From Verrucomicrobiota bacterium (lineage in GTDB: Bacteria; Verrucomicrobiota; Verrucomicrobiia; Verrucomicrobiales; Akkermansiaceae): 54,755 bases of DNA. The position numbers and the translations under genes were made by a program. Location of the stretch: the NCBI GenBank assembly GCA_046308575.1, contig JBKDYW010000189.1:1-54755 (forward strand). Direction: 5' to 3'. This document shows positions 626-22,884 of this stretch, in pieces. The first letter of the stretch is position 1; the number at the start of each line of letters is the position of its first letter. The notes under the pieces were generated by a model, which saw only the letters and a list, made by a program, of their open reading frames with translations, was not told where the DNA came from and did not search any database.

Positions 626-1270
626 ATGAGTGCAAACACCCCCCGAATACAAATGGATGCCGGTCTCGAGATCGGCTATGGCACCCCCCTCGCACGCGTC
701 GGAACCAACATAAGCCTGAGCTCCGGCACCCATTTCCTCGTCGCGCGAAACGGGCGAGGGAAAACCACGCTTTTGCGCACTCTCGCTGGCAGCATCAAGC
801 CGGTATCGGGTCATTTTGAAATGCACGGATTCGTGCAATACCTCGCCGAAAACATCCGCTTCGACCAAGAGCTTCCCACCAAGAGGATCTTTCATGCGCT
901 GCTGCCAAAAGGCGGTGTCGATGATGCATTCGCGCTGGCCGACCGCACGGAACTCGATGTCACCAAGCCCTATGGCAAGCTTTCCACCGGTAACAAACGC
1001 AAAGCGAACCTCATCGTCGCCGAATGCTCGACCCACCCGGATGGCAACATCCTCCTACTCGACGAACCGCTGAGCGGACTCGATGTATTCGTCCGCCAAA
1101 CTTTCGAGGAACTTTGGCACAATTCGAACAAGGGCATTCTCCGATTGGTCAGCTGCCACCCGGATTATGACTCGATGGAAATGCCAAGCAGCTTGCTCAT
1201 CGAAGATGGACACATCCGCCACCTCAACGAACCCGGCCAAAAGTGGAGCGACCTGAAAGGCCTCATCTAA
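626..1270 (+). CDS. ABC transporter ATP-binding protein (PilH-like, pilus-locus associated)
   Basis: Walker A variant ARNGRGKTT, signature LSTGN, Walker B LLLDEP and H-loop SCH. Start uncertain (590, 602 or 626). Confidence 0.85.
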   Translation: MSANTPRIQMDAGLEIGYGTPLARVGTNISLSSGTHFLVARNGRGKTTLLRTLAGSIKPVSGHFEMHGFVQYLAENIRFDQELPTKRIFHALLPKGGVDDAFALADRTELDVTKPYGKLSTGNKRKANLIVAECSTHPDGNILLLDEPLSGLDVFVRQTFEELWHNSNKGILRLVSCHPDYDSMEMPSSLLIEDGHIRHLNEPGQKWSDLKGLI

Positions 1271-1391
1271 CAGAAACTGCAAAATTTGCATCGCCGTTTG
1301 ACAGCGGCACATCCCGAGCTACCGATGTATTGGTGATCAAAGGTTTTTTTCACCTGCGATCATCCGGATTCGGTCCTCACCACCGACGCCC

Positions 1392-2192
1392 ATGAACCCG
1401 CAAACACCCATCTCGCTGCTGACCAGCCTCGCGCTGGCGGCAGCAGCATGCGGGAGTTCCCTAACAGAACGGCTCACAACCACTCATGAGGGATTTCTCA
1501 AGGAACGACGCACCGCGCTTGCCTCGTTGAGCGACCCCTTCGGCATCCCGCAAAAACCGCGAAAAGTGCTCGAATCGCAGGATCCCTGGCTCGTTGGCTG
1601 GAAGGATTTTATCGCCGCCACAGTCTTCTGGATCGGTGAGAAACCGACCGAAAACAACCCGACTCCGAACAACCGTAGCGCATGGGATCAGAACTGGGAA
1701 AAAAATTTCGGCGGCTACGACGACCCAAACAATCGCTCGGGATACAAACCCGCAGGATTCACTCCGCGGCTCAATCAATTTTATGTCGCACTCCCGTACA
1801 ACGACCTCCTGCCCGATGGATCCCATCGCCCCGAGGCCCCTGAGATGATCCCATGGTTCTGGCGGAGCTACATGGGCAAGGGCATCTCCGTCTGCAAGGG
1901 CCGCTGGATCAGCATCCGCCACGGCAACAAAACCTGCTATGCGCAGTGGGAAGATGTCGGCCCCTTCGAGGTCGACCACTGGCAGTATGTTTTCGGAAAC
2001 GAAAATCCGCGCCCCAATCGCAACGGCAATGCCGGCATCGACCTCAGCCCGGCCGTCCGCGACTACCTCGGCATCACCAGCGGCACTCCAATCTCATGGC
2101 GCTTTGTCGAAAACGAGGAAGTACCCCACGGCCCATGGATCCATGAAAAATCGAAGCCCGCAAAAAATGAAATCACCCTCGGCGAAAATTGA
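1392..2192 (+). CDS. Exported protein with a DPBB/RlpA-like (lytic transglycosylase/expansin-like) domain
   Basis: Signal peptide with possible lipobox AAAC. Motifs ATVFW..., YVALP, W-I-x-I-R...YAQWEDVGPF and GIDLSPAV match the double-psi beta-barrel pattern (D-x-GP, IDLS). Confidence 0.6.
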   Translation: MNPQTPISLLTSLALAAAACGSSLTERLTTTHEGFLKERRTALASLSDPFGIPQKPRKVLESQDPWLVGWKDFIAATVFWIGEKPTENNPTPNNRSAWDQNWEKNFGGYDDPNNRSGYKPAGFTPRLNQFYVALPYNDLLPDGSHRPEAPEMIPWFWRSYMGKGISVCKGRWISIRHGNKTCYAQWEDVGPFEVDHWQYVFGNENPRPNRNGNAGIDLSPAVRDYLGITSGTPISWRFVENEEVPHGPWIHEKSKPAKNEITLGEN

Positions 2193-2195
2193 ATC

Positions 2196-2753
2196 ATGAA
2201 AACAAAACCCACCCTCATTCACACCCTCTTCGCGATCGCTCTCACCGCTGCCCACATCGCAAGCGCCGAGCCCGAAATGCGCGATGCCGCCACTCACGAG
2301 GAACTACAAAAAAAATCACACGCAGCAGTCATCCAGGATCCAATGAAAAAACTGCCACCCGCCAACGAGTCGGACCCTGCAAAAGATGCACCCAAAGACC
2401 TGATAAGCCAGTCGGACATTCTCAGCTTCGACGGCACATTCACACTCGTTCCAAAACGCGCGATCCTCGCCATTCCCAAAGATCTCGAAAAACGCACGCA
2501 GCTTGCGGACGCCACCAAGCTCGTCGGCTGGGCGGAATTTCACGCCAACAACCGCGGATGGATCACCACCGTCGAAGTCACCCGCGAACAAGCGGAAGGC
2601 AACTCACCGATCGATGAAGACATTCTTAACAGCTTCAAGGACAGCACGACCATCGTCGTGGCCACCTACCACGGCGGCCCAATTTCAATCCTTCCACCCA
2701 AAGCACCACCCGCCGAAGAAAAACCCGCCGAAGACCCAGCCTCAAAACCTTAA
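2196..2753 (+). CDS. Secreted hypothetical protein
   Basis: Signal peptide ending ASA-E and a Pro/Ala/Glu-rich tail. Starts 3 nt after the previous stop codon. Confidence 0.7.
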   Translation: MKTKPTLIHTLFAIALTAAHIASAEPEMRDAATHEELQKKSHAAVIQDPMKKLPPANESDPAKDAPKDLISQSDILSFDGTFTLVPKRAILAIPKDLEKRTQLADATKLVGWAEFHANNRGWITTVEVTREQAEGNSPIDEDILNSFKDSTTIVVATYHGGPISILPPKAPPAEEKPAEDPASKP

Positions 2754-2762
2754 AGCCACTCT

Positions 2763-3383
2763 TCAATCCTTTACCGCATCCCCCTCCTTCGCCGCTCCCG
2801 GCTCCTTGCTCAACTCCAGCCTCAAATTGTCATTCCGATACACGAGCGAAAATCTCGCCTCCTTGCTCTGACGCAACAAATCCTCCACCTCGGTAAACAC
2901 CAACAAAAGCATCATCCCCTTCACCGGCTCACGATGAAAAGAAATCTTCCTGGTCGCAAATTTGTCCACCACCGAGCGCTCCTGCTGGTTGGCGGTCAAG
3001 GCACCATGACGCGCGGTCAACTCACGCCGCATTTCCTCAAATCGGGCCTCCATCAGATCGGCCGAAGCGTCGGGGTCGGAATAATGAACCGTGAGCTCAT
3101 AAAGCCGGCCATTCAAAAAGCGTGCCTCCAACGCCGATGCTTTGTGCTCGGGCAAAAATCCCTTGGACGGCTGGATCTTGAGAATCCGCAACGCAGGCTG
3201 ATCCCCCGGCTGCATGATGTTCAGATCGAGCGATTGACGCGTCGCCCATGCGACCAACTTTTCCGGAGAGTCGCCCCAGTTCAATCCGAAGGGCGGATTC
3301 ATCTCGGCCTGGGCCAAGCAAGTTCCCGCCGCGAGGAACATGCCAAGCACACCGCACAAAACCATTCGGGCAAGCCGCATCAT
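2763..3383 (-). CDS. Exported hypothetical protein (opposite strand, inside the pilus locus)
   Basis: Signal peptide MMRLARMVLCGVLGMFLAAGTCLA followed by PPFGLNWG, a typical start for small exported alpha/beta domains. Start uncertain (3365-3434). Confidence 0.65.
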   Translation of the reverse strand: MMRLARMVLCGVLGMFLAAGTCLAQAEMNPPFGLNWGDSPEKLVAWATRQSLDLNIMQPGDQPALRILKIQPSKGFLPEHKASALEARFLNGRLYELTVHYSDPDASADLMEARFEEMRRELTARHGALTANQQERSVVDKFATRKISFHREPVKGMMLLLVFTEVEDLLRQSKEARFSLVYRNDNLRLELSKEPGAAKEGDAVKD

Positions 3384-3392
3384 GCCCATCTC

Positions 3393-3884
3393 CTGCGGCA
3401 TTTCACGCCACGAAGCAAGCCCCGATCCTGCCACCGCGCCTTCGCGTTGGTCGAAATCACTCTCGCACTTTCCATGCTCACCGTCATCGGGCTCTTCATG
3501 CTCAAGATCTCACTCGACATCCTCGCACCGCGCCAATGGGCACTGCAACAAGCCCTCAGCGATGCCCACATGACCTACGAACGCGCCTATGCCGAACGCC
3601 TGCCATTCGACAGCCTGCTCGCCAATGATTCGCCATGGCCGGCCTTTCCCAACACCGCCAGCAGCGCAGTGGAAATCGGCCGACTCCCAGGCGGCACACC
3701 CGTGACCGGCACCATCCACCGCACGCGCCTGCCCGATGCGGAAAACCATCCGGTCGATGGTGGCAATGGCGATGAAACCAATAACACCGCCGCAATGAAA
3801 GTTTGGACAGTCCTAAGCGTGCTCACCTACCAAATCGGCGGACGCTCCTACGCCAAATCCCGGACCGTGATCCGATCCCAATGA
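3393..3884 (+). CDS. Minor pilin / pseudopilin (PilV/GspI-position)
   Basis: Class III signal RSKPRSCHRA|FALVE plus a hydrophobic helix. The stop overlaps the next ATG (ATGA). There is no nearby ATG, so CTG at 3393 is an assumed start. Confidence 0.7.
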   Translation: MRHFTPRSKPRSCHRAFALVEITLALSMLTVIGLFMLKISLDILAPRQWALQQALSDAHMTYERAYAERLPFDSLLANDSPWPAFPNTASSAVEIGRLPGGTPVTGTIHRTRLPDAENHPVDGGNGDETNNTAAMKVWTVLSVLTYQIGGRSYAKSRTVIRSQ

Positions 3885-4411
3885 CAATCCGCAAACCAAG
3901 CATCCGAAGAGCCTTCACGCTCATCGAACTCTCCCTTGCCATCGGCATCGGCATGGCGGTCTCCGCCCTTTCACTGGCTCTGTTTCAACAACAACTCTCA
4001 TTCCTCAACATCTTTCGCTCGCAATCGTTTCTCACCGAAGAAGTGCCGGTCATCAACATGCATGTCAGCAAACTCGTCGGCAAAGCCGAGCGCTTCAGAC
4101 TCCACGCCACGGTCGAGGAAGCACTCAGCGGTCTCTCACCACGCCTCACGCCATCGCCGGTCCTGATCCTCAACTTTCGCCAACCCGACGGCTCCGTCCG
4201 CGCATCGATCCTGTCCTTCGAAAACCGCGGCAGCGGCAAAGCACTCTACCATTATGTGGTTTCCGAAGATGGCCAGCTCAATGCCCCCCAATGGCATGTC
4301 ACCAAAGCTCCGCGCGATGTCTCATTTGCAGTCGAACAAGGGATCCTGCGCATGACCCTTACCGGCCCGAACAACGAACGCGTCACCTACTCGGGCGCAA
4401 TGACCCAATGA
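3881..4411 (+). CDS. Minor pilin / pseudopilin (PilW/GspJ-position)
   Basis: MTIRKPSIRRA|FTLIELSLAIGIG prepilin cleavage/methylation motif. ATGA overlaps on both sides. Confidence 0.85.
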   Translation: MTIRKPSIRRAFTLIELSLAIGIGMAVSALSLALFQQQLSFLNIFRSQSFLTEEVPVINMHVSKLVGKAERFRLHATVEEALSGLSPRLTPSPVLILNFRQPDGSVRASILSFENRGSGKALYHYVVSEDGQLNAPQWHVTKAPRDVSFAVEQGILRMTLTGPNNERVTYSGAMTQ

Positions 4412-6552
4412 AAATTTCCGCCACAAAACACCATGCCGTGGGCTACGCCTCCGTGCTCATGGTGCTTTCGATGGGCACGCTGCTGCTCATGCTGGCAATT
4501 TTTTCCTACCGCAGGGCCGTGAGCGCACACTCGATCCAGTCAGCCGTGCAACTGCGCGTCGACTATCAGGAAAAGGAAGACGCGATCCTTCGCTCGATCG
4601 TCGCCATCACCCCCAACCGCGCGATCCGCGCGATGCGGCACATGTCGGAATCGGAAAACGCCGCCAATGCCTCACTCACCTGGGAAGGCATTTTCACCGA
4701 TGCCCTCGCACTCGCAAATGCGGGCCAATCGATTTCCAGCGATGTACTCGCCGCCATCTCCACAGGGCAAACGCAGATCTCTGCAAATTCAGGCGACTCA
4801 CCACCCGGCGATCCCGACGCAATTTTCAAGTCGCCCGAAAATCCCAACGCCCATGTCGCCGCAGGCATCAACCGCAACCTCGGCCCGCGCTACCCGGTCC
4901 CGCTCAACTGCAACGATTCGTCGGACACCACACGCGACTCGGTCTGGCCGATTATATCAAACAGCAAAAAATACGGAAACCTCGCACAAGCAGGCGTCGC
5001 ACTGCCAGTCGCAACCTATCAGGACTTCAACCTGATCAATTACCCGAACATCAACTTCGGCTACTCAAAACCCGGACAACCCTTCGTCGCCAAACGCAAC
5101 TGGTGGGCATTCGACATCAACCTCAGTGCGCAGGACTCGGCCAAAACCCGCATCACCAATCCGAAACGCAGCATGGTGCTGTCGATTTACGAGATCCCCT
5201 CACAACTCGCCATCTCGTCATCGGCCTTCATGAGCCTCGGCCGCAATGCCGTCGGCGCCACCTGGGGCGACATCAACATCACCGGCGGCGTATTCGCCGG
5301 CCGCGCAGTGGTCGAAGGCAACGCCAGCCTATCCGCCATCGCCACTCGCCGCGGCGCATCCATCGGCGCCCAATCAAGCGTCGGCAACATGAGCTTCGAA
5401 AATGACCCCTTCGCACCCGGCCTTCGCGAAAGCCACTACCTCACAAGCGGCGATTTCTTCCCCGTCTCGCTTGCCTCGGAAAGCGGACGCGCCGCCTTCG
5501 TGTCCATCAACCGCGGCGCGGATTTCTTCGACCGCTTCTCACACGAACCCGAAGTCGACACGCTCTCATCAACCACATGGAACCAATACTCGGTTGGCGC
5601 GCTGCAATGCGCAATGCGGCTCGATGTCGTCGATACCGTGAGCCCCGCCGACAAAACTCCATCCGCGCTTCGTTTTTCCTACTTCAAAAACGGCGAGCGC
5701 CAGGAGCTTGTCGTGCCACAAACAGCCAACTCCGAAGCGGGACTGCCACAAGGCTACATTCCCTGTGCCGGACCAAGCCAAAGTCACGACTTCGGCACTG
5801 CCGTGGTCGATGTAGCTTATGGCGGCAACGGTGTCTTCGCATTCAAAAATGCGGTCACCGGACTCGTCACCTTCAACGAAGCAACCTTCGGTCCACTGCC
5901 GCCCGAAATTCCGAAATACGGATACTTCAAACCCAGCTTCCCCTTCGAAGCCACCACCTTGCCCAATGGCAAAAATTGCATCGCCATCTATCCACAACGC
6001 TTCGCGAATTTTCTCACCGCCCTCAATGCCGATGGCACCCACATCAACCACTCGCTCGTGGTCAATGTCGATTACACCATCGCCACCGGCAGCGCGAACC
6101 TCTCAAAGCCATCCATTCCCTGCACCGACCTCGACTACGGACTCATCCTCAAGGAATGCGCCAACATGAGCTCATTCACCAAAGGCTTTTCACTGGTCAC
6201 CAACCTCCGGCTCTACCTCGGCGATGACTTCAACATCACACCTACCACTCCGCCCACCGGCTACAATCCACCCAGCGCCTACTACCCACCCTGCTCGATC
6301 TTCGCACCGGAAAAACGCTACGGCGTCGATGTCGAACCGCTCGGCGTGAACCTCTCCGGTCAAGTCGGATCCCTCGCAAGCGAATCTGCCACATCACCCG
6401 TCCGACCTCTCGAAAGCAAAACCATCAGCGGCGCAAGCATCGATGGCAAAAACATCAAAGCCAACCTCCGCCCGATCACTCACCCGGCCGAACTCCCACC
6501 GGTAACGATGATGAACTGGCTCATCCTCATCGAAGAAATACGGGGCGAGTGA
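4408..6552 (+). CDS. Large PilX/GspK-like minor pilin with a ~650-aa globular extension (candidate tip adhesin)
   Basis: MKISATKHHAVG|YASVLMVL lacks Glu5, as PilX/GspK do, and is followed by a hydrophobic helix. Third gene of the coupled minor pilin trio; 714 aa. Confidence 0.7.
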   Translation: MKISATKHHAVGYASVLMVLSMGTLLLMLAIFSYRRAVSAHSIQSAVQLRVDYQEKEDAILRSIVAITPNRAIRAMRHMSESENAANASLTWEGIFTDALALANAGQSISSDVLAAISTGQTQISANSGDSPPGDPDAIFKSPENPNAHVAAGINRNLGPRYPVPLNCNDSSDTTRDSVWPIISNSKKYGNLAQAGVALPVATYQDFNLINYPNINFGYSKPGQPFVAKRNWWAFDINLSAQDSAKTRITNPKRSMVLSIYEIPSQLAISSSAFMSLGRNAVGATWGDINITGGVFAGRAVVEGNASLSAIATRRGASIGAQSSVGNMSFENDPFAPGLRESHYLTSGDFFPVSLASESGRAAFVSINRGADFFDRFSHEPEVDTLSSTTWNQYSVGALQCAMRLDVVDTVSPADKTPSALRFSYFKNGERQELVVPQTANSEAGLPQGYIPCAGPSQSHDFGTAVVDVAYGGNGVFAFKNAVTGLVTFNEATFGPLPPEIPKYGYFKPSFPFEATTLPNGKNCIAIYPQRFANFLTALNADGTHINHSLVVNVDYTIATGSANLSKPSIPCTDLDYGLILKECANMSSFTKGFSLVTNLRLYLGDDFNITPTTPPTGYNPPSAYYPPCSIFAPEKRYGVDVEPLGVNLSGQVGSLASESATSPVRPLESKTISGASIDGKNIKANLRPITHPAELPPVTMMNWLILIEEIRGE

Positions 6553-6808
6553 AAAAATTCGGCGATTCTAACGACCTTTTGAAAAAAAGAAATAAAAAAT
6601 CGCACCAGTGAAAAATTTACAATCAAACATATACATGTAATCGGATCGAAATTTTTACCCGCCAGACCCGCATCGAAAATATTTTGGATTTTTTTCATTT
6701 CTTTGTTGAATTTCTTCTTATCGCGTAATACCTATAAATATATAACTCGTCGTAGAAGTTTTTATAACAATTTCCACGCGCTGTTCAACCCAATCACCAC
6801 CCAAAACC
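6550..6808. promoter_or_regulatory. AT-rich intergenic regulatory region with repeated TGAAAAA(A/T)TT motifs
   Basis: Strongly AT-rich against the GC-rich flanks. Motif copies at 6550, 6609 and, in reverse, 6646-6658. Confidence 0.5.
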
Positions 6809-7678
6809 GTGAAAACGCACCCACCCACACGGATCCTCACCACTCTATTGGCACTTTTTCCAGCCATCGCACCGGATCAGGCATCGGCACAACAGGCAGC
6901 CTCAGCATCCCGCATTCCGGTCACTCCCGACGGGCTTCTCAATGCCTACCCATCCGTCGTTCAAACCGGAACCAAGCCAACCCTTAGCTGGAACATCCTT
7001 CACCCCAGCAAGGTCAGCGACCTCGTCGAAGTCGACCCTCCTGGTACGCTCATTGCCACATCGAATGTGTATGCCTCCGTGCAAATCGTAGGTTCAAATG
7101 CTGGCACGATCGCCAACGGCGCAGGCACTCCGGTCAGCATACCCACCGATGCACGCCTGAGCTTCAACGGTGGCGCCTATGCGCAGATCTTTTTCGGCAC
7201 CCAATCGAATGTCGACCCCGTTGACCAGCTCTACATCAAGAAAATGCAGCCGGGCGACACACTGGATTTCGGCGGACGCTCAGTTCAAAACGGCAGCTGG
7301 ACGCCTTTCTACACGAGCCGCAGCTCCAACTTCCAAGTGGTTTCCCTCACCCACGGCCAAACTCCGCCAATCGGCTTCAATCTCTCGCAATCAGCCACAC
7401 TCAACAACTTCCTTAGGCCCTACCTCGACGCCTCCGGCAAGGTCAACATCGGCCCGCTCAGCGTGCTTGTGCTCATGGAACTCGGAACAAACGACCACAA
7501 CAGCCAAAGCTTCGACCTCCAGGATCAGGTCCTGCTGGTGACCTTCAGCAAAAAACATCCCAACAACGGCCACGGCAACAACCTCGATGGCGTCGATTCC
7601 TCCAACCCCGGCCAAGGCAAAGGCGGACCCAATGGCGCCGTCGACCCTTCGGGCGGCATCGATGACGAAGCTCGTTGA
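6809..7678 (+). CDS. Secreted protein with a C-terminal NNGHGNNxDGVDSSNPG low-complexity motif
   Basis: GTG start, signal peptide ending ASA-Q and a beta-rich body. Contains ELG...FDLQDQVLLV (DUF4114-like ending, by recollection) and a Gly/Asn/Asp tail. Confidence 0.75.
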   Translation: MKTHPPTRILTTLLALFPAIAPDQASAQQAASASRIPVTPDGLLNAYPSVVQTGTKPTLSWNILHPSKVSDLVEVDPPGTLIATSNVYASVQIVGSNAGTIANGAGTPVSIPTDARLSFNGGAYAQIFFGTQSNVDPVDQLYIKKMQPGDTLDFGGRSVQNGSWTPFYTSRSSNFQVVSLTHGQTPPIGFNLSQSATLNNFLRPYLDASGKVNIGPLSVLVLMELGTNDHNSQSFDLQDQVLLVTFSKKHPNNGHGNNLDGVDSSNPGQGKGGPNGAVDPSGGIDDEAR

Positions 7679-7803: not shown

Positions 7804-8826
7804 ATGAAAACCACTCCATTCACACTTATTGCAACAGCTCTGATGAGCTTGTTTGCAACAGCACAGAATGGAACCACCTATGTCAATTTCATCAGGCAGG
7901 TGCAATTCCCCAGCGGCGTCCAGTGGGATGCGACGATTGCAGCATCGGGCGAACAACTTTCAAACCTGGCCATCGATCCGGGTGGCGCCCGTTTCGAACT
8001 CTGGACCGTTCAGTCCACTCCACTCGCCAGCTACATTCTCGATTCCCGTTATGTCGGCACCTACATCCCAATGGCCGAAGTCACCCTTCGCTCAGAAGAT
8101 GGATCATCAACAATCCCAAGAACCCGCGCCGACAGACCGTTTTATGTGGATGTAACAGTCGAGGGACTTCACGACGGAGAGTCCGAACCTGAGGCCTCGA
8201 AAAAAGTCCGTTTCCTCCGCCATGTGCAATCCTACGGAGCGAATGGCACTGGCATCGGCATCGATCGCACTCAAGCGACACTGGTGAGCCAAAGCTTCAT
8301 CAACAAGAACGGCAGCACCACACTCACCTACCTCATCAATGCCGTGCCCGGCGCCAACCGCGCCAAAGTCCGCGGCGAGGAACGCTTCTCGATCTTCTCG
8401 CTCGAAGACTACCAAGCCCCAGCCTCACAACTGGCATCACGCTTCATCCAGATCTGGCCGGTGGCCGATGGCACGATCAGCGGCATCGTGAATGACCAAT
8501 TCATCCGCTACAACCTCCCGCAGCTCACGCTCACACTCAACGACCTCTACCCGAACTCAACGACTTACGCCCAAGTCTACAAAGGCAATCCAAGTCTCGG
8601 CACCAACGGCACGATCGTTCCCGGATCCGCACTCGTCATCCAAGAGTCAGTTCCGCAAAACCGCGTGCTCACGCTCAAGAACTACGAGTCCGTCTTCGAT
8701 TCCGACGGACGCTGGACGATGGAAATCGTCACCAAAACCCCGTTCGGAACCGACCGCCTTGCCTATGTGAGCTTCGACATCGATCGCACGATGAAGCTCA
8801 ACACCAACATGAGCACCATCGAATGA
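7804..8826 (+). CDS. Secreted beta-rich hypothetical protein
   Basis: Signal peptide MKTTPFTLIATALMSLFATA-Q; 340 aa, Thr/Ser/Val-rich. Confidence 0.75.
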   Translation: MKTTPFTLIATALMSLFATAQNGTTYVNFIRQVQFPSGVQWDATIAASGEQLSNLAIDPGGARFELWTVQSTPLASYILDSRYVGTYIPMAEVTLRSEDGSSTIPRTRADRPFYVDVTVEGLHDGESEPEASKKVRFLRHVQSYGANGTGIGIDRTQATLVSQSFINKNGSTTLTYLINAVPGANRAKVRGEERFSIFSLEDYQAPASQLASRFIQIWPVADGTISGIVNDQFIRYNLPQLTLTLNDLYPNSTTYAQVYKGNPSLGTNGTIVPGSALVIQESVPQNRVLTLKNYESVFDSDGRWTMEIVTKTPFGTDRLAYVSFDIDRTMKLNTNMSTIE

Positions 8827-14935: not shown

Positions 14936-15531
14936 GTTCCATCCTAGTGCTTACACTCATCACAACCCTGGCAACGGCAAGGGTACCGGAAAACAACACC
15001 AACGAATCAATCACCCCCCAACCATCGCGCTACGCAGGCCAAGACACCGCGCCATACACATCCGCCATCAGCTCGCTGTTCTCAATCGCCAAACGCGCCA
15101 CCGATCCGTTCTGCCAACCACAGGATCCAAACGCCAAACCAATCATCAGGCCAAACAGCAAAACAATCACACGCCGCACCACCACGGCCGAGCCTGCAAA
15201 ACAACTCTCCAACATCGTCGGCCAAATACCCATCACGACGATCATGCCGCGCGAAAAACGCTTCCTCGTCGGAAGCCGTAGCATCAGCGAGGGCGAAAGC
15301 CTTACCCTCAATCACCAAAACAAATTGATCCACACCAAGGTCACAGAAGTCACTTCCGCACGCATCGTGTTCATCAATACAGAGACAGGCGAACAAGCCG
15401 TACGCACACTCTCACTGCTGCCCGCGGGCATGACGCCCGGCCAAAACCAAATCACACCCGCAGGGATGCTGCGGAATCAATTAAACGCCCCCTTGGAAAT
15501 CGGATCCGCAACCGATGCCAACAAACCATGA
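14923..15531 (+). CDS. PilP/GspC-like exported protein
   Basis: Signal peptide, DPF motif and beta domain with ISEGE...KVTEVTSARIVF. Lies between the PilO-like gene and the secretin. Confidence 0.6.
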   Translation: MGKVSSILVLTLITTLATARVPENNTNESITPQPSRYAGQDTAPYTSAISSLFSIAKRATDPFCQPQDPNAKPIIRPNSKTITRRTTTAEPAKQLSNIVGQIPITTIMPREKRFLVGSRSISEGESLTLNHQNKLIHTKVTEVTSARIVFINTETGEQAVRTLSLLPAGMTPGQNQITPAGMLRNQLNAPLEIGSATDANKP

Positions 15532-15544
15532 ACCCCATATCGTC

Positions 15545-17311
15545 ATGAAAAAAACAAAGTTACTCATTCCTCTGGGCATCCTTCTCCTCACCGCTCCGTT
15601 CAAGGCGCAAACCACTGCGGATGTCGGCACCGATCCAGCACCGCTCCTTGTCGAAACCACTGCAAGCGAGCCCGATGCCGAAGCCGCTTCCAAGGCACCA
15701 GCGGCGGAGGCCCCGCCCGCAGTGCCATCCGCTCCCAAGGATCTTCCGTTTCCAATCTCCGAGCCACAAAAACCCAGCACCGAAACGCCCGCTGCGGGAA
15801 CACCCGCCGCCAGCCCGATGCAAGCATCGGATGAAGGCTACATCCTCAAAGGCGCACCGCTCAACGACATCCTTCAGTTCCTTGCCAAAGCGGCCGGACG
15901 CCAGTACTTCCACAACGCAAAACTCAACGGTCCGGAGTTTCTCGTCACCGGCCACCTCAACGACGGCAACGCGATGCGCCAAATGGAGGAAATTTCCTTC
16001 ATGTACGGAGTCACCCTCCACACCAAAGGCGACACGATCTACGCGCTCACTGCCTCTCAACTCGCACAACTCCCAAGCGCCGAGTTCCACTATCAACTCC
16101 AGTACCTCCGCCCAACGGACATCAAACAAATCCAGGAGCTGATCAAACCCATGCTTAGCCCCGCTACCGGCATCATCAATTTCGAACCGAAAACCAACAG
16201 CATTATCATCATCGACTCGGCCCACCGCATTGAACAGGCCCGCCAATTCCTCCGCAGCATCGACCGCGCCAAAGGCCAAATCGTGATCGAAACAAAAATC
16301 CTGCGCATCAATAGCACCGCCGCCGAAAACATGGGCGTCAATTGGTCCTCGTCACTCGGTGCCAAAGGCGTTCCGCTCTCAGTCACCCGCGACCTCGCCT
16401 CAGTCTTCGGCCTACCCTCGTCACCCGCATCCAGCATCGTCGGCGGCGACGGCACCAACCTCGTACTGAGCCCGGTCGAAGTCACCGGCGTGCTATCCGC
16501 CCTTTCGGAAGGCGGCATCGCCAGCCAAATCTCCAATCCCACACTCATCACCGAGGACAACGAACAAGCCACGATCTCCATCATCGACCGCATCCCGATC
16601 GTGACATCCACCACCACCCCGGGCAGCGGCGGCACCCAACCAACCGTCACCGAAGAAGTCCGTTACAAAATCGACCAAGGCGACAAAAGCATCGACGCCG
16701 ACCCCGAAAAACACCGTGAAATTGGCATCTCGCTCGTGGTCACACCCACCCTGCTTCCCGACGGCACCGTGCGCATGAAAATGCGCCCACGCTCCGCACA
16801 AATCACCGGTGAAGTCATCGGCGTCGGCGTCGACGGACAAGAAGGCAACCGCTACCCGCGCGTTTCGGAATCGATGATCGAGACCCTCGCACGCGTGCCA
16901 AACGGTCATTCACTGGTTGTCGGCGGATTTTACGGCCAAACGAAAGACGAGGACAAAACCAAGGTCCCTCTCCTCGGCGACATTCCGATTGTGAATTTCT
17001 TCTTCAAAAGCAAGGAAGCGAAAAAGGAAAACACCAGCCTCGTTTTTATCGTCACACCAAAATCCTATGATCCCAAAGACCGGCACTCGAACGACAGCGC
17101 CAGCAATTTCGTACGCCAATCCACCGCTCTCACCGCCGATCACGATTGGGTCGATGACAACAATCCCGGCCCTGCACACGAACCGAACGTCGTGCGCACC
17201 ATTCGCGGCGCAATGCCATCGCAAGCTCCCTACTATCCAACGGCCAGCGAAGTCGTAAACACAAACAAACCAAAGTCAAAACGCCCCGCTCCATTCAGTT
17301 ACAAGCGCTGA
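15545..17311 (+). CDS. Outer-membrane secretin (PilQ/GspD family)
   Basis: N3 domain (TNSIIIID...IDRAKGQIVIETKI), SNPTLITEDNEQATISI, GISLVVTPT, SLVVGG and KVPLLGDIPIVNFFFKS. Confidence 0.92.
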   Translation: MKKTKLLIPLGILLLTAPFKAQTTADVGTDPAPLLVETTASEPDAEAASKAPAAEAPPAVPSAPKDLPFPISEPQKPSTETPAAGTPAASPMQASDEGYILKGAPLNDILQFLAKAAGRQYFHNAKLNGPEFLVTGHLNDGNAMRQMEEISFMYGVTLHTKGDTIYALTASQLAQLPSAEFHYQLQYLRPTDIKQIQELIKPMLSPATGIINFEPKTNSIIIIDSAHRIEQARQFLRSIDRAKGQIVIETKILRINSTAAENMGVNWSSSLGAKGVPLSVTRDLASVFGLPSSPASSIVGGDGTNLVLSPVEVTGVLSALSEGGIASQISNPTLITEDNEQATISIIDRIPIVTSTTTPGSGGTQPTVTEEVRYKIDQGDKSIDADPEKHREIGISLVVTPTLLPDGTVRMKMRPRSAQITGEVIGVGVDGQEGNRYPRVSESMIETLARVPNGHSLVVGGFYGQTKDEDKTKVPLLGDIPIVNFFFKSKEAKKENTSLVFIVTPKSYDPKDRHSNDSASNFVRQSTALTADHDWVDDNNPGPAHEPNVVRTIRGAMPSQAPYYPTASEVVNTNKPKSKRPAPFSYKR

Positions 17312-17338: not shown

Positions 17339-17923
17339 ATGATTTCAGGAACATCCATCAATCTCACAAAGACTGACCCGACCGTGCAGGATTCGGTCGA
17401 GGCAACCGATGTGTTTGAGGCTTGCCTCGAGAAAACAAGCCACGCGCTCCTAGCCGTGAAAGCAGCCACCCCGTCGGAAGTCGCGAAAGCCGCGGAACTC
17501 TACCGCAAGTCAAAGTCCGATGGACGCCCCATCGACATGCTTGAAGCCACAGCAAAAATTCAAGGACGCCAGGAACCACAAATGAGCGATGCGGTAAAAT
17601 CACTCGCAGAAAAAGTATCCATCACACTCAACACCGCCCCACCGCTCATCCCCTTTGCCGGCAAGCTCATCACACCCACGGCATTCTACGAATCATTCGA
17701 CCGCATCCACCGCATTGCTGCCGACCTGCTCGTGCCGGTGATCTTTGTCGAAGACACGGATGCGATCGGCGTCGCATCTATCAATCCAATCGCCGCGGAG
17801 ATGCTTTCGCAAATCATTCAGGATGCCGTCTCACGCCGCTTCGGCATCCGTCCCTTCATGACCATCCTCAGACTCGACCACGAGTCATGGTCATTTCTCA
17901 CCCGCAAACACTTCGGATCATGA
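17339..17923 (+). CDS. Hypothetical protein resembling a stand-alone PilB/GspE N-terminal domain
   Basis: LVPVIFVEDTDAIGVASINP aligns by eye with FAPLCISGTDKLIVAIANP in the next gene. ATGA overlap with pilB. Confidence 0.55.
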   Translation: MISGTSINLTKTDPTVQDSVEATDVFEACLEKTSHALLAVKAATPSEVAKAAELYRKSKSDGRPIDMLEATAKIQGRQEPQMSDAVKSLAEKVSITLNTAPPLIPFAGKLITPTAFYESFDRIHRIAADLLVPVIFVEDTDAIGVASINPIAAEMLSQIIQDAVSRRFGIRPFMTILRLDHESWSFLTRKHFGS

Positions 17924-19617
17924 TCGAATTCGATGGCATGTCCTTCAATGATTTGATCAGCCGCCGCATCATGGGCGAGCTGGGCCAACACGATCCGTCC
18001 TATGCCGATCTCGCTCAGGATCAAGTCGCCAACCGCGTCACGCGCCAGAGTTTCATGGCGACCCTCGCCAAGATCAACGGCCTACCCTTCATGCCCCGCA
18101 TCGCGGATTTCTGCGAACCCTCGCTCCATGCGAACTGCGATGCTACCGTCATGACCCGCGGCTACTTCGCGCCACTGTGCATCTCGGGCACCGACAAACT
18201 CATCGTCGCCATCGCCAACCCATGGAGCCCGCTGCCCGGCGAATACCTTGCACCTCGCTTCCCAGATCACGAAATCGTCGAGGTCGTCACGCTCGTCTCA
18301 GAAATCAATCGCGCGATTGAATCTGTCGCCACCAACTCAGGCCCATCGCGCTCCGAACTCGAATCCATCGATGTCGAGGACATGGACGACAAAATCCGCG
18401 ACTTCGACGTCACCACCGAATACAGCGAGCCGATGTCGCAACTGATCGCCACGATCATGGCCGATGCGGTCAAGACCCGCGCATCCGACATCCACTTCAA
18501 GGTGGAAAAAGAAAGTTTCTACTACTGCTACCGCGTCGATGGCGACCTCGGCCAGAAGTTTGAAATCCCGATGAAGCTCAAGGACCGGCTCGATGCCTTC
18601 CTGCTCAACCTGATGAAGCTTCCCACCGAGACGCGCAACACCGCGCCAGGCATCTCGGGCCGATTCACGATCTCCTATTTCCACCGGCCGATCGATGTGC
18701 GCTACGAACGCCACCGCACCTACCGCGGCTACCATGTCACCATGCGCCTGCTCGATAAAGGCAACATCAATGTCACACTCGGCAAAGGCACGCTCGCATT
18801 CGACGATGAAACGCTCTTCGCACTTTCCAAGGTGATGAAAATTCCCGCCGGCATCATCGTGATGTCAGGCCCCACCGGCTCAGGAAAATCCACCACCCTC
18901 AACGCGATCCTGCGCGAACTGAACCGCCCCGAAGTGAATATCCTAACGCTTGAAAACCCCGTCGAAGACGAGGTCCCAGGCATCACGCACTGCGACCTCA
19001 AAAGCGCGAAGGAATTCAAGCCGATGATCGCATCATTCATGCGCTCGGACCCAGACATCATCCTCATGGGCGAGGTGCGCGATCTGGAATCCGCTGAGCT
19101 CGCCATCGAGGCCGCCGTCACCGGCCACAAGGTGCTCACCACCATCCACACGCCACGCGCATCACAAATCATCGAACGCTTCGAACAACTCGGCATCGAA
19201 CGTTGGAAAATCGCCCAAACCCTCAAAGCCGCATGCGCGCAGCGGCTCGTGAAACTGCTCTGCCCCTACTGCAAAGAACCGATACCCGGCATCAGCGACC
19301 TCGACCGCAAAACATTCTGCCTCGATGAAACATGGGCCGCCACCCAACTCTTCGCCGCAAAACCCGGCGGCTGCCACGAATGCCGCCACAGCGGCTACAG
19401 CGGACGCACCGCGATTCTCGAAATCATCCCCATCACGCCAAAAATTTCCGACCAACTCTCCAAGGGCCTGATGTCCCCCTACGAACTCGAAGTGAAAATC
19501 GCCGAAGAAGGCGTGCTGCCCAACCTCAGGCGCAGCGGACTCAGGCTCCTGCGCGAGGGAAAAACAGATCTCGCCGCCGTCAGCAAAGTGATCGACATGA
19601 CCTACACCGATGACTAG
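17920..19617 (+). CDS. pilB: PilB/GspE-family assembly ATPase
   Basis: RASDIH, GPTGSGKSTT, TLENPVE, RSDPDIILMGEVRD, TGHKVLTTIH, and the Zn motif CPYC...CHEC..SGYSGR. Confidence 0.93.
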   Translation: MIEFDGMSFNDLISRRIMGELGQHDPSYADLAQDQVANRVTRQSFMATLAKINGLPFMPRIADFCEPSLHANCDATVMTRGYFAPLCISGTDKLIVAIANPWSPLPGEYLAPRFPDHEIVEVVTLVSEINRAIESVATNSGPSRSELESIDVEDMDDKIRDFDVTTEYSEPMSQLIATIMADAVKTRASDIHFKVEKESFYYCYRVDGDLGQKFEIPMKLKDRLDAFLLNLMKLPTETRNTAPGISGRFTISYFHRPIDVRYERHRTYRGYHVTMRLLDKGNINVTLGKGTLAFDDETLFALSKVMKIPAGIIVMSGPTGSGKSTTLNAILRELNRPEVNILTLENPVEDEVPGITHCDLKSAKEFKPMIASFMRSDPDIILMGEVRDLESAELAIEAAVTGHKVLTTIHTPRASQIIERFEQLGIERWKIAQTLKAACAQRLVKLLCPYCKEPIPGISDLDRKTFCLDETWAATQLFAAKPGGCHECRHSGYSGRTAILEIIPITPKISDQLSKGLMSPYELEVKIAEEGVLPNLRRSGLRLLREGKTDLAAVSKVIDMTYTDD

Positions 19618-20755
19618 CACCACCACATCGCCCGCCGCAACGGAAGCACGATTCGGTTCAAAAACCGTAAGGGAAACACCGAGTACAACCTTAAGAAAAG
19701 AAGCCAAAGTTAAGCCTTTCTCAAAAAAGGTACTGGTCGATCTGTTCCGTGGCCTTGGCTCAATGCTGCGCGCGCAGATCAACACGGCCGATGCATTGAA
19801 GTATTACAGCAACGACCTCCCCGACAAGGTACTCTCCGGCACGCTCCTGCAAATCCGCGAGGACATCGCCAAAGGAATGAATGTGCACGAGGCCTTTCGC
19901 CGCACGGGCCGATTCAACGATACCATCGTCGGCCTCATTCAGGCAGGCTCTGATGCAGGCCAGCTCCACCATGCATTCAACTCGCTAGCCGCGAGACTCA
20001 AAAGCGAATTGCATTTCTCCAAGCAACTCAAGAAAGCCACCGTCACGCCATGCGTGATCATCTGCGTGCTGGTTGGTGCCTTCATCACCTCGCAGGTGAA
20101 GATCGTCCCGCAGGTCGAAGAAATGCTCAGCGGCGTCGGTGCAAAGCCGGATGGAATCACCGCACTCTCATTCAAGGTCAGCCATTTCACCCAGTCAGTC
20201 TGGCCCGTGTTCGTGGCGATTCTCGTCGGCATCGCACTCGTGATCTATCGCTCGGGCCATGTGCAATCGCTCATCCTCGGTCTCGCCATGTCCCGCTGGC
20301 GCCTGCTTCGCCAGCTCATCATGAGCCTGCGCCAACTCACCTTTCTTTCCACCATCAAGCTCCTACATTCAAACGGCATCAACCTCGCAAAGTCGATCCG
20401 CGTCTCGGCCAACAGCGTGCGCAACACACCCCTCTACGATGAACTCCGCACCGCCGCAGACAAATACGAGCACTCCGGCGTGCCGCTTTCCACAGCCTTT
20501 GCCAAATACACCTCGGTCGACTCGCAAGTCACACACATGCTCTCAATCGGGGAAAAATCCGCCTCACTCGATAGCCAACTGGAGATGCTTTCAGAAATGT
20601 ACGAGGAGGACGCGCAAAACTACATGGCCGCATTCGCCGCCACGATCAGCTTCATTGTACTGATCATTGCCGTGTCACTCATCGCCGCGGTTTTCATCGG
20701 CACCTTCCTTCCCATCTTCATGATGGGACCAAAAATGATGCAAAGCGGCATTTGA
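19610..20755 (+). CDS. pilC: PilC/GspF platform protein
   Basis: Two T2SSF repeats (LGSMLRAQI...LIQAGSDAGQL; LLHSNGINL...MLSIGEKSASLD) and a C-terminal FLPIF TM. Confidence 0.9.
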   Translation: MTSTTTSPAATEARFGSKTVRETPSTTLRKEAKVKPFSKKVLVDLFRGLGSMLRAQINTADALKYYSNDLPDKVLSGTLLQIREDIAKGMNVHEAFRRTGRFNDTIVGLIQAGSDAGQLHHAFNSLAARLKSELHFSKQLKKATVTPCVIICVLVGAFITSQVKIVPQVEEMLSGVGAKPDGITALSFKVSHFTQSVWPVFVAILVGIALVIYRSGHVQSLILGLAMSRWRLLRQLIMSLRQLTFLSTIKLLHSNGINLAKSIRVSANSVRNTPLYDELRTAADKYEHSGVPLSTAFAKYTSVDSQVTHMLSIGEKSASLDSQLEMLSEMYEEDAQNYMAAFAATISFIVLIIAVSLIAAVFIGTFLPIFMMGPKMMQSGI

Positions 20756-20767: not shown

Positions 20768-21178
20768 ATGCAACTCACACGCTTCGACCGCTGGCTTCGC
20801 GAAAGTTTCGTCAATGAAACCCACATCAGGACATTGCGCGCGCCGGAATCGATCCCGAAAGGCGTGCAATCGCTCGAACTCCCGGAAAAACCCGGCGCTC
20901 GCTTCAAACACCTCTTCATCATCCGCAACCCGAAAACCGCCGATGCATTCATCAAGAACCTCAAGGACCAGAGTTTCATGTTCTCAACGACCATCGAAGA
21001 TCGCAAGGCATGGCATGTGCCGATCATCGCGCCAAAAAATCGCTCATTCACCTGGCGAATCGTCTGGCTTGCACTTGCAATTTCAGCAAGCGGCCTGATC
21101 GTTCATATGTACCGGTCCATCTCCCATGATTCCGAGTTGCTGAAAATCCTGTCCGATTCGCTAAAAACTTTTCTCTGA
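20768..21178 (+). CDS. Hypothetical membrane protein
   Basis: 136 aa with a C-terminal TM (IVWLALAISASGLIV), in the pilus operon. Confidence 0.65.
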   Translation: MQLTRFDRWLRESFVNETHIRTLRAPESIPKGVQSLELPEKPGARFKHLFIIRNPKTADAFIKNLKDQSFMFSTTIEDRKAWHVPIIAPKNRSFTWRIVWLALAISASGLIVHMYRSISHDSELLKILSDSLKTFL

Positions 21179-21201
21179 TCCACCCAAGCCACCCTCGAAC
21201 G

Positions 21202-21612
21202 GTGAAAACAAACCTCCGCCAAATGCATGGAAAGCAAGCTTTCACGCTGCTCGAAATGACGGTGGTGATCATGGTCCTTCTCACACTTATCGGCATCAGC
21301 GTCTATTCGGTCGGATCAGTCACATCATGGCGAAAGGGCCGCGAGGCGTCGGACAAATTGCTCAGCGTGCAGACCGCACAAAGGCTCTACCTCTCGGATC
21401 ACCCGACCGCCGATGTTAGCAGCCTCACCGCCGCCATGCTCATCCCCTACCTGCCGGATCGCGCCACTGCGATACCGACGGTGACCTCACTCGAAGACGC
21501 GGAACTGGCGATCAAATTGAATGTTTTCCCGCCAATCGTCGTCAATCATTCAGGGTCAGCATACGACCCCTCGGGCAACAACAAGGACTCCCTCTGGGAT
21601 GTTGGAGAATGA
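21202..21612 (+). CDS. Pilin / pseudopilin
   Basis: GTG start; HGKQA|FTLLEMTVVIMVLLTLIGIS prepilin motif. Confidence 0.85.
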   Translation: MKTNLRQMHGKQAFTLLEMTVVIMVLLTLIGISVYSVGSVTSWRKGREASDKLLSVQTAQRLYLSDHPTADVSSLTAAMLIPYLPDRATAIPTVTSLEDAELAIKLNVFPPIVVNHSGSAYDPSGNNKDSLWDVGE

Positions 21613-22070
21613 AACAAGCACTCACAGCCTTCATCGCATTCGCACTCGCCACATCGGCCAGCATTGCGGAAATGCGTCATGTCGGCGACTTCACGCTCGT
21701 TTCCCGCTCAAAACTCACCGGCGAAAAACACCAACCCATGCCGATCAAGCCCATGGTCTTTCATGTTTCGACCGATGGAGTGCAGGTGCATGTGAAACTC
21801 GACGACAAGGAAGAGACCAACATTTTCCATATCTATGCCTCCGAAGGCATCGGTCGCCTGAACAAAGATAGCAACACGCTTGAAATCGTCCCGGGCATTC
21901 AAGCATCAAGCAACAAAGGCGGCGAGCTCCGCCACATCCGCCTCACCACCGGGGAAATGACGATCACCACATTCCCCGCGCGATCGGATCAAGCGGTGGT
22001 GATTCACGCCGTAGCCGTCGACAAAAATAAACCCGTGGCGCAAGCCACCAACCCATCGAATGAGCCATGA
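21609..22070 (+). CDS. Secreted hypothetical protein
   Basis: Signal peptide ending SIA-E, beta-rich body and ATGA overlaps. Confidence 0.7.
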   Translation: MKQALTAFIAFALATSASIAEMRHVGDFTLVSRSKLTGEKHQPMPIKPMVFHVSTDGVQVHVKLDDKEETNIFHIYASEGIGRLNKDSNTLEIVPGIQASSNKGGELRHIRLTTGEMTITTFPARSDQAVVIHAVAVDKNKPVAQATNPSNEP

Positions 22071-22408
22071 ACAATGATATACCTTCCACCGAAACGAATG
22101 CCGCAGAAAAGCCCGCATGCGCGTGCAAGGCCTACCCCTTCCTCTTGATCGCAAGCACGACCATCGCCGCTGTTTTCTGTTTCATGTATGTCACCAAACC
22201 GACGGGCCCGCCTGCAATTCAAGCGCCCGTCCCAGCAATCATAAGCGCCCCACCAAAAAGCGAACCCGCCACCAAAGCAGCCCCACCCGAAGCGAAGCTT
22301 CTGCCCGATACCTCTAAGCTCCCCGGCAATGAGGCAACACCCGCCGCAGAAACTCGAAACATTGAGCCCAACCAAATCCCCAGCGAACCCAACCCCGCGC
22401 AACCATGA
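22067..22408 (+). CDS. Single-TM, Pro-rich hypothetical protein
   Basis: TM FLLIASTTIAAVFCFMYV followed by a Pro/Ala-rich disordered tail; ATGA overlaps. Confidence 0.6.
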   Translation: MNNDIPSTETNAAEKPACACKAYPFLLIASTTIAAVFCFMYVTKPTGPPAIQAPVPAIISAPPKSEPATKAAPPEAKLLPDTSKLPGNEATPAAETRNIEPNQIPSEPNPAQP

Positions 22409-22884
22409 AAACAATCCCCATCATCTGCACTCTCGCACTCACTGTGATGACCGCGTTTTTCGTGAAAGCGTGGTGGCCAATCCGTGACATGGGCTGCGAC
22501 TTCAGGGCCATCCAACCCAAAACATTCGCCAGCATCGCCGTTCCGGTGCTTCCACGCATCGAAATCAAACAACCTGCACCCGCCACCGCACCCGCTGCCG
22601 TCGTAACCAAGCCAGAGCAGGCCCCAACCGATGCCGAGTCCGTCACCATCGGCAAAAAGACCCTCGATTCACTCATCGCCGAAGTTCAACGCCTCGGCAA
22701 AAGCAACGAAACACTGCGCGATCAGCTTGCCGAATTGAACCGCGACCTCATGCAGTTGGAGTTCCGTGTCGATACTCACTCGGAATCATTCCGCCCGCTG
22801 CCCGTCAATGAAGAGCAGATCGCCACCACTTCAGAGGAGCCAATCGAAGAGGAAGCCAGCCTGCTTCCGCCTCTCATCAACTAA
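22405..22884 (+). CDS. Membrane-anchored coiled-coil hypothetical protein
   Basis: N-terminal TM, Pro/Ala linker and heptad segment LIAEVQRLGKSNETLRDQLAELNRDLMQLE. Confidence 0.65.
   Translation: MKTIPIICTLALTVMTAFFVKAWWPIRDMGCDFRAIQPKTFASIAVPVLPRIEIKQPAPATAPAAVVTKPEQAPTDAESVTIGKKTLDSLIAEVQRLGKSNETLRDQLAELNRDLMQLEFRVDTHSESFRPLPVNEEQIATTSEEPIEEEASLLPPLIN

Follow-up and report, generated by a model that had tools for sequence, protein, structure and literature searches.

Locus organization and genome context

The window analyzed here was the whole 54,755-nucleotide stretch (positions 1 to 54,755 of contig JBKDYW010000189.1, assembly GCA_046308575.1) of a Verrucomicrobiota bacterium, and its positions 626-22884 harbored a 25-gene type IV filament locus (g01 to g25; Table 1). 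Twenty-four of the genes lay on the plus strand and only g04 on the minus strand, with 4-nt overlaps at 7 of the 23 junctions between plus-strand genes, in agreement with the original prediction (a reading of the sequence alone) of about 25 mostly co-oriented and often overlapping genes. The PilB, PilT, PilC, secretin, ATP-binding cassette (ABC), and five prepilin-like genes named there were all recovered: (i) Pfam/NCBIfam matches comprised a PilT-like ATPase, a PilB/GspE-like ATPase, PilC/GspF, a secretin, an ABC ATPase, and N-methyl motifs and (ii) class III signal-like N-termini were present in g05, g06, g13, and g22 (Glu5 present) and in g07 (Glu5 absent). PF00437, PF00482, and PF07963 matched in one cluster, and the generic model of the type IV filament superfamily is composed of a clustered ATPase, integral membrane platform, and major pilin (bioRxiv 576694). 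PilY1 had no match in the locus in library scans.

The host genome (2.81 Mb, 95% complete) belonged to Akkermansiaceae, and its relatives were Luteolibacter, Haloferula, and Akkermansiaceae. Its other contigs carried (i) an Akkermansia-type (MUL2) pilus on C57, where the Amuc_1101, Amuc_1099, and Amuc_1098 models all matched above their cut-offs, (ii) two PilT-family motors above cut-off on C52, (iii) PilB/GspE ATPases scoring 523-599 bits on the PilB model on C121 and C222, and (iv) pilins resembling those of type II secretion systems (T2SS) plus a GspD-like secretin on C54 and C182. The scores of the locus against the corresponding cut-offs were 308/676 (PilB), 286/630 (GspE), 251.5/319.1 (PilT), 140/284 (PilQ), 118/424 (GspF), and 57.6/750 (Amuc_1098, g17); all its core genes fell far under the curated cut-offs, whereas the other motors of the genome passed them or came near. 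In the comparison with the Akkermansia pilus, C57 acted as the positive control. By these profiles the locus is not MUL2, and this genome of only 2.8 Mb has at least three type IV filament systems, of which the locus is the third, apart from the MUL2 and T2SS-like sets. Across contigs C57, C249, C121, C222, C52, C54, and C182, at least four secretins, four PilB/GspE ATPases, and three PilT-family ATPases were counted.

Distribution and gene order

The orthologs were counted in one draw of 200 Verrucomicrobiales genomes of at least 90% completeness, in which kin were not independent and for which the g09 and g11 profiles had been built partly from the genomes then counted. The extension ATPase g19 was found in 73 genomes, the tip pilin candidate g07 in 75, and the exported proteins g09 and g11 in 72 and 73, respectively; all four co-occurred in 67/200, none was present in 123/200, and a partial set was present in 10/200. 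The locus is one conserved, co-inherited system with dedicated accessory genes, and the predicted distinct verrucomicrobial type IV filament was borne out by this four-marker co-occurrence and by the separation from MUL2. The system was not found in any of the 36 genomes of the family's small-genome genus (likely Akkermansia) or in the 25 genomes of family f4. A phylum draw of 400 genomes, with three candidates scored per genome, gave six matches, all in the same order. The g07 patterns matched 319 stretches across 185,579 species genomes; among the titles of the best 76 of these 319 loci, 75 read Verrucomicrobiota and one 'uncultured bacterium', and two of the 76 were titled Akkermansia muciniphila (by title label alone). 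Luteolibacter luteus and Haloferula sp. were the cultured strains with the system.

The gene order, read around the matches in 27 genomes, was kept across four Verrucomicrobiales families and was organized in two modules: (i) the machine module g01–g10–g11–g12–g13–g14–g15–g16–g17–g18–g19–g20–g21–g22 and (ii) the tip module g08–g03–g09–g05–g06–g07. The two modules were adjacent in f3, convergent in f5, and usually far apart in f1; of 76 related loci, one had the tip module nested within the machine module as in the window. The retraction-type ATPase g12 was found in 25 of the 27 genomes. The description of the locus as self-contained had to be given up, because the loci are usually split in two modules and because library scans found no prepilin peptidase in the locus, the single one of the genome being located on contig C194. 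AT-rich spacers (6550-6800, 7680-7800, and 8830-8940) surrounded g08-g09, which fits a relocation of g08-g09 to this place in this lineage.

Table 1. Genes and other features of the type IV filament locus, with positions in the window
Feature	Position	Strand	Description
g01	626..1270	+	ABC ATPase, PilH-like position; PF00005 E 6.8e-9; adjoins g10-g11 in relatives
g02	1392..2192	+	Exported; no Pfam/NCBIfam/PDB match; loosely linked (10/27 genomes sampled); second copy on contig C266
g03	2196..2753	+	Exported; middle gene of g08-g03-g09 trio
g04	2763..3383	-	Exported; seen only beside g05, two families; first 50-150 codons likely double as antisense leader of g05
g05	2934..3884	+	Minor pilin, PilV/GspI class by position; cleavage after Ala 3438-3440
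g05 candidate starts	ATG 2934 (-168 codons), TTG 3234 (-68)	+	Both within g04, opposite strand
g04-g05 gap, 54 nt	3384..3437	.	-35/-10-like boxes for likely leaderless g04 transcript (-); open basic g05 leader (+)
g06	3881..4411	+	Minor pilin, PilW/GspJ class by position; weak PF07963
g07	4408..6552	+	714-aa tip pilin candidate without Glu5; modeled pilin fold with inserted beta-solenoid, own terminal strand, and lectin-like graft
g08	6809..7678	+	Exported; first, variable gene of trio; no Pfam or PDB match
g09	7804..8826	+	Exported, beta-rich; conserved strand-like C-terminal tail
g10	8939..9706	+	ABC permease, PilI-like; four strong hydrophobic segments
g11	9733..10683	+	Exported, His-rich stretch; PilG-like position, homology weak
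g12	10680..11945	+	Divergent PilT-family ATPase; TIGR01420 251.5 bits, cut-off 319.1
g13	12085..12495	+	Likely major pilin; 14-aa leader, Glu5, cysteines
g14	12617..14386	+	PilM-PilN-like fusion: actin-like domain, transmembrane helix, periplasmic domain; 589-aa start backed by P0035
g15	14390..14935	+	PilO/GspM-like; NF040576 E 2.5e-6, under cut-off
g16	14923..15531	+	PilP/GspC-position protein by position and motif; no Pfam or PDB match; without lipobox
g17	15545..17311	+	Secretin; one N3-type domain, no AMIN match
g18	17339..17923	+	Cytoplasmic, coupled to pilB; possibly degenerate PilB N-domain
g19	17920..19617	+	Extension ATPase, PilB/GspE-like; long-branch clade
g20	19610..20755	+	PilC/GspF platform; PF00482 in two stretches
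g21	20768..21178	+	Small membrane-anchored protein, no known family
g22	21202..21612	+	Minor pilin; presumed FimU/GspH-class adaptor; PF07963 E 0.001
g23	21609..22070	+	Exported; families f1 and f6 only
g24	22067..22408	+	Membrane-anchored; 113 aa here versus 204-263 aa in seven relatives; C-terminal half missing
g25	22405..22884	+	Membrane-anchored coiled-coil protein; family f1 only

Motors and their phylogeny

Both motors (g19 and g12) retained the Walker A, Walker B, and His boxes. g19 kept the four-Cys zinc motif, with the Asp of the Asp box replaced by Asn; g12 had all catalytic boxes intact, including the Asp box, together with two insertions and, in the alignment, a changed C-terminal helix motif. 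Canonical PilT bears the motif AIRNLIRE in this helix. g12 was placed on a long branch among PilT/TraJ in a quick tree.

Among the 50%-identity representatives, the g19 orthologs ranked first, followed by about 20 rare full-length relatives at 33-44% identity and then by generic PilB/GspE. Three quick trees of ATPase domains (86, 58, and 30 chosen rows from 219 domains plus nine references, MSH and Tad not being among them) united the PilB of the locus and these rare relatives in one clade (Shimodaira–Hasegawa-like approximate likelihood ratio test [SH-aLRT] 94, 100, and 100), outside the groups passing the PilB or GspE cut-offs and outside the genome's own paralogs. With type IVb pilus (T4bP) references, the g19 clade joined three of them (SH-aLRT 93) on long branches open to attraction. 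The approximately unbiased (AU) test rejected neither the union of the clade with PilB (p 0.073) nor that with GspE and the genome's own paralogs (p 0.099). As judged from these sequences, g19 represents a distinct, fast-evolving clade on a long branch that may nest in PilB or GspE; by phylogeny the locus may be a separate subtype, as the original prediction had it, with the AU tests leaving room for nesting.

The roughly 20 rare, fast-evolving relatives of g19 (P0122-P0156) came from small metagenomic clusters, one of them named Verrucomicrobium sp.; through them, the system may reach outside the order. About 14 proteins of approximately 1,000 aa (P0130, P0133, and P0137-P0152) contained two tandem PilB/GspE ATPase domains each. 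The sole match outside the order, G432, was rejected, as it carried a canonical pilB–pilC–pilS–pilR–pilA locus.

Secretin and inner-membrane assembly proteins

The secretin g17 began with a Pro/Ala-rich part that was not conserved and had one conserved N-domain and, in 26/26 sequences, one N3-type domain; AMIN had no Pfam match in it. The GspD model was matched only from position 301 of 600, with a single Secretin_N stretch. The layout of PilQ consists of N0, one N3-type domain, and often AMIN, and that of GspD of several N-domains; from its domain matches, the layout of g17 appears PilQ-like without AMIN rather than GspD-like.

The single protein with cytoplasmic, transmembrane (TM), and periplasmic parts noted in the original prediction proved to be real: the model of g14 (predicted local distance difference test [pLDDT] 87.4) showed an actin-like domain and a periplasmic alpha/beta domain with a single TM helix between them. 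VIA ranked BT_3980 first (Z 14.3), followed by PilM (Z 12.6 and 12.2, 265-270 residues aligned), FtsA (Z 10.9), and GspL (Z 10.1, 216 aligned), and the alignment with PilM 2ych (Z 12.6) had a root-mean-square deviation (rmsd) of 4.7 over 265 residues, as for a PilM actin-like domain joined to PilN. On this model, g14 reads best as a PilM-PilN-like fusion, a design shared with Amuc_1101. The single-chain protein and the short secretin without AMIN had been taken as T2SS traits of a hybrid system, a reading that is weak: g17 has its N3-type domain in all 26 sequences, g14 aligns more residues to PilM than to GspL, and neither the GspL-type single chain nor the GspK-like cis strand of g07 (see below) is diagnostic of T2SS, because they are shared with Amuc_1101 and ComZ. 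The PilT-family motor and the single N-domain of the secretin are at odds with T2SS as well.

Pilins and the tip pilin candidate g07

The likely major pilin g13 contained at least two Cys in 23 of 30 sequences and occurred in up to three tandem copies in relatives; its short leader, Glu5, and cysteines are those of a major pilin of the type IVa pilus (T4aP). The model of g07 (pLDDT 83.7) displayed a long N-terminal helix without Glu5 and a pilin sheet with a large insert, and the sheet was completed by residues 702-710, the terminal strand being supplied in cis; strands 225-237, 254-264, and 702-710 flanked the solenoid in a ComZ-type layout. Thermus ComZ was the sole Foldseek match under E 0.001 and also ranked first in VIA (Z 7.2, rmsd 4.2, 259 residues aligned), followed by ice-binding solenoids (Z 5.5-6.2). 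Residues 449-511 weakly matched rhamnose-binding lectins in VIA (Z 5.3 and 5.1, 62 aligned), and a 70-aa graft (residues 440-510) was present in 8 of 27 rows, the other rows having 14-27 aa there. The net charge of g07 was negative in 24/27, as low as -43, and g05 was basic in most relatives. Cyanobacterial PilX solenoid pilins, often with grafted domains, have been proposed to replace PilY1 (PMC13759059), and the last strand of PilK-class pilins is provided in cis or by PilC/PilY1 (bioRxiv 2026.02.14.705861). g07 is likely, on its model, a tip pilin of the ComZ/cyanobacterial PilX architecture with a lineage-specific lectin-like graft. A similar Asn/Gly-rich tail, which looks like a small mobile motif, was found in two places: as an acidic tail of about 40 aa on 7 of 17 g08 copies (7580-7678 in the window) and at the end of one g07 copy of G032 (L058 2721-4844).

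Exported trio g08-g03-g09

Genomes with the system had between one and five copies of g09, and genomes without it had none. Next to 20 dispersed g09 copies, g03 lay beside 17 and g08 beside 12, a different exported gene took the place of g08 in five (by eye), and system pilins were absent from their vicinity. The strand-like C-terminal tail was similar in all 42 g09 copies listed. Atlas look-alikes scored under 0.9 and are leads only: Ig-like/DUF4165 for g09 (0.89) and unnamed Verrucomicrobiota clusters plus DUF4114 for g08 (0.78). We infer that the trio represents interchangeable partner modules of the fiber; its proteins could instead be secretion substrates. The second exported family heading g03-g09 cassettes in place of g08 was seen at L072, L073, L076, L085, and L086 (G553, G121, and G559).

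ABC module

g01, g10, and g11 occurred together in the relatives read. The g10 profile matched the permease beside the canonical pil locus of G432 (E 3.7e-7), and g11 compared weakly with the PilG-position protein of the same genome (probability 7%, E 0.005). From these matches, the three genes appear to form a PilH/PilI/PilG-type ABC module, with a weak link for g11. Myxococcus pil clusters are known to include an ABC module, PilGHI (PMC6060248); this Myxococcus counterpart is still unexplained, and the dedicated module found here is a testable part.

Probable antisense leader of g05 within g04

At the 64 loci where g04 abutted g05, the 18-codon gap before the g05 cleavage site contained no ATG, GTG, or TTG in 39 and no ATG in 57, and where g04 was absent a normal ATG preceded the g05 motif. 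Over the 68 codons that precede the cleavage site, the g05 frame was free of stops at 63/63 loci (0/4,284 codons), and the other plus-strand frames of the gap had stops at 9 and 14 of the 63 loci. Within the first 50 codons of g04, codons that would read as stops on the antisense strand were unused (0/449 Leu and 0/186 Ser), versus 6-13% (Leu) and 9-19% (Ser) in the first 50 codons of six neighboring genes. The g04 His columns opposite -68 and -168 used CAT (ATG on the plus strand) over CAC at 45:5 and 57:3, respectively, versus 32:27 and 12:28 in two other g04 His columns. The third codon positions of g04 varied most, so g04 itself is a real gene. In the DNA consensus of the gap, -35/-10-like boxes were conserved for a likely leaderless g04 message on the minus strand; such a promoter explains the fixed 54-nt gap and not the avoidance of stops. 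Three exceptions to the leader pattern were observed: G535, out of register and with a near ATG, and G029 and G039, with near ATGs. The loci with the leader are related to each other, and an unlinked g04 was not found as a control.

These codon patterns make it likely that translation of g05 in Akkermansiaceae begins 68 or 168 codons farther upstream, antisense within g04; a near-cognate g05 start within the gap is possible. Such a leader would be tolerated because it is cut off. An antisense-encoded prepilin leader was not described in the literature searched (subscription journals and supplements lay outside the search). If confirmed, it would clearly exemplify selected coding overlap between sense and antisense strands in bacteria, and annotation would miss or truncate the g05 pilin.

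Remaining genes and flanking regions

The claim of many uncharacterized hypothetical genes stood in that these genes are dedicated and co-inherited, and it was reduced in that several have known counterparts: the PilX/GspK class for g07, with its ComZ architecture, the PilV/PilW class of minor pilins for g05 and g06 (from position and motif), and the ABC module for g01, g10, and, weakly, g11. Searches of solved structures with g02 and with profiles of the g14, g07, g18, g08, g11, and g16 alignments gave nothing above chance, and no consistent match came from scanning the g07, g08, and g16 alignments against Pfam. Second genomic copies of the orphan genes of the locus were not found except for g02. 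The origin of g18 as a duplicate of the PilB N-domain was unsupported (hhalign probability 0.6%). Relatives had about 500-1,000 extra bases between g24 and g25, pointing to a local deletion in this lineage. A promoter scan over 6400-12700 gave chance-level results.

TraJ was the second-best family of g12, and a mobile-element origin was rejected for this copy, in view of the lack of a tRNA in the window, the genome-like GC content, and the housekeeping flanks. Directly downstream of the locus, 24043-27243 (minus strand) contained a trio of ATP-grasp, inactive transglutaminase-7TM, and zinc-protease-like genes. The region 37987-44292 had a lower GC content (about 49-50%) and contained MBOAT-like acyltransferase and AlgJ/AlgX-like genes, as judged from translations alone.

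Proposed function and alternatives

The reading that we favor, with about an even chance of being right, is that of a diverged type IV pilus machine, encoded by the locus, which would build a retractile adhesive fiber. The prepilin peptidase on C194 would mature the pilins, and g05-g06-g07 would act as the priming trio; because g07 supplies its own terminal strand, PilY1 would not be needed. g19 would polymerize g13 behind this tip, with g22 as the adaptor, and the fiber would exit via g17. The g07 solenoid, its lineage-specific lectin-like graft, and the Sec-exported g08-g03-g09 are predicted to give binding specificity for glycans or particles, to which the variation of the first trio gene between copies would contribute. 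g12 would retract the fiber and pull the cell onto the surface, and g01-g10-g11 would aid biogenesis as PilH-PilI-PilG do in Myxococcus. In Akkermansiaceae, g05 would likely be made from the antisense start inside g04. A bolder form is tentative and more probably wrong than right: a separate Verrucomicrobiales type IV filament subtype, defined by long-branch motors, a solenoid-capped fiber, swappable non-pilin trios docked by the g09 C-terminal strand, and a disposable g05 leader of 68-168 residues encoded in antisense.

Several observations weigh against an adhesive fiber. g07 matches ComZ only moderately (Z 7.2 against the tool's 8; TM-score 0.15-0.22; about 12% identity), the lectin match covers just 62 residues at Z 5.3, and g08, g03, and g09 gave no family or structural match above chance. 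g12 has the changed C-terminal helix and scores 251.5/319.1 on the PilT model. On the T2SS side, cyto-EpsL was the second Foldseek match of g14, just ahead of FtsA and PilM, g15 matched the GspM model (E 2.5e-6), and the lipobox pattern was present in 1 of 21 g16 sequences. Moreover, ComZ is a solenoid-bearing pilin that binds DNA without an obvious basic patch (PMC6561018), and the competence and adhesion PilX pilins of cyanobacteria share the solenoid (PMC13759059); the fold of g07 therefore does not pick adhesion.

A competence pilus, in which the g07 tip would bind DNA like Thermus ComZ, g12 would pull it through the secretin, and ComEC would import one strand, would account for ComZ being the best structural match of g07, for the PilT-family motor, for the basic g05 of most relatives, and for a three-gene minor pilin cassette ending in a solenoid pilin, which recalls pilA1-3/comZ (PMC6561018). 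The genome also has ComEC above the Pfam cut-off; it lies on another contig, and its match in 10 of 14 control genomes means that it discriminates little. A DNA receptor would not be expected to carry a lectin-like graft or to come with a multi-copy exported trio, the mostly negative charge of g07 is a hint, and no more, in the same direction, and we regard this function as unlikely. Secretion by a T2SS-like machine, whose short periplasmic filament would export g08, g03, g09, and the variant first genes and whose PilT-like ATPase would reset the piston, would explain why the dispersed multi-copy cassettes look like cargo. It agrees with the cis terminal strand of g07, as in T2SS GspK (bioRxiv 2026.02.14.705861), with the single-chain g14, the GspM match of g15, and g16 without a lipobox, and with the unrejected nesting with GspE. 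It is nevertheless quite unlikely: PilT, described as lost in T2SS (bioRxiv 576694), is kept here, g17 has one N3-type domain, a 714-aa solenoid tip and Cys-bearing tandem major pilins suit an exposed fiber, and the genome has a separate T2SS-like gene set.

The least probable of the readings considered is a T4aP for twitching motility whose only peculiarity is its fast evolution, the minor pilins being ordinary and the ABC genes a PilGHI module. The T4aP-like parts list is full, nesting with PilB was not rejected, and PilGHI belongs to Myxococcus clusters (PMC6060248); against this, the core genes score far under the cut-offs that the other motors of the genome pass or nearly pass, no pilus chemosensory or two-component genes were among the Pfam/NCBIfam matches in the locus, and T4aP counterparts of the orphans g18, g21, g08, g03, and g09 were not found. 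With the retractile adhesive fiber as the preferred reading, the system would be a second complete candidate for an attachment pilus, driven by motors of its own and found in more than a third of the genomes sampled from the order. Free-living Akkermansiaceae and relatives are particle-associated glycan degraders, for which MUL2 is the proposed attachment pilus (PMC13174399). Most genes of the system carry no family label, and the lectin-like graft, the swappable exported trios, and the dedicated ABC module offer testable parts.

Comparison with known systems

A description of the locus was not found in a literature search that had subscription journals and supplements outside it. The Akkermansiaceae pilus papers, in the portions at hand, treat MUL2 and Amuc_1098 only (PMC13174399, PMC4960237, and PMC10540074), and the main text of the TFF-SF survey, as far as at hand, does not mention Verrucomicrobia (bioRxiv 576694). 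New here are the ComZ-like fold of g07, the multi-copy exported trio, and the likely antisense leader of g05.

The locus and the MUL2 pilus of Akkermansia (Amuc_1098-1102) share the bacterial family, the PilM-PilN fusion, a secretin, and the proposed glycan attachment (PMC13174399 and PMC4960237), but no window gene matched the Amuc_1099 or Amuc_1101 models, and the true MUL2 set of the genome is on C57. With T2SS the locus shares the single-chain GspL-like topology, a weak GspM match, and a tip pilin with a cis terminal strand, but it differs in the PilT-family motor, the cysteines of the major pilin, the GspE score (286/630 bits), and a GspD match that begins at 301/600. Compared to T4bP, with its large, long-leader pilin, the major pilin of the locus is short and has a short leader.

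Compared to T4aP of Myxococcus, Thermus, and Pseudomonas, the locus likewise has candidate motors for extension and retraction, a platform of two domains, an actin fold like that of PilM, a PilO-like protein, a secretin with one N3-type domain, a major pilin with a short leader, a cassette of three minor pilin genes, and an ABC ATPase with a permease and a partner. It differs in that PilM and PilN are joined in one chain, AMIN and PilY1 gave no match, the PilP-position gene lacks a lipobox, the cores score far under the cut-offs, orphan genes are added, and PilB sits on a long separate branch. g07 resembles ComZ and cyanobacterial PilX in the lack of Glu5, in a C-terminal strand that completes the sheet after a large ice-binding-like solenoid, and in a lineage-specific graft (PMC6561018 and PMC13759059). 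It differs from them in its identity of about 12% at Z 7.2, its mostly acidic character, and the flanking non-pilin exported trio; moreover, the machine that serves g07 is its own and encoded in the same locus, unlike the single machine common to the tips of cyanobacteria.

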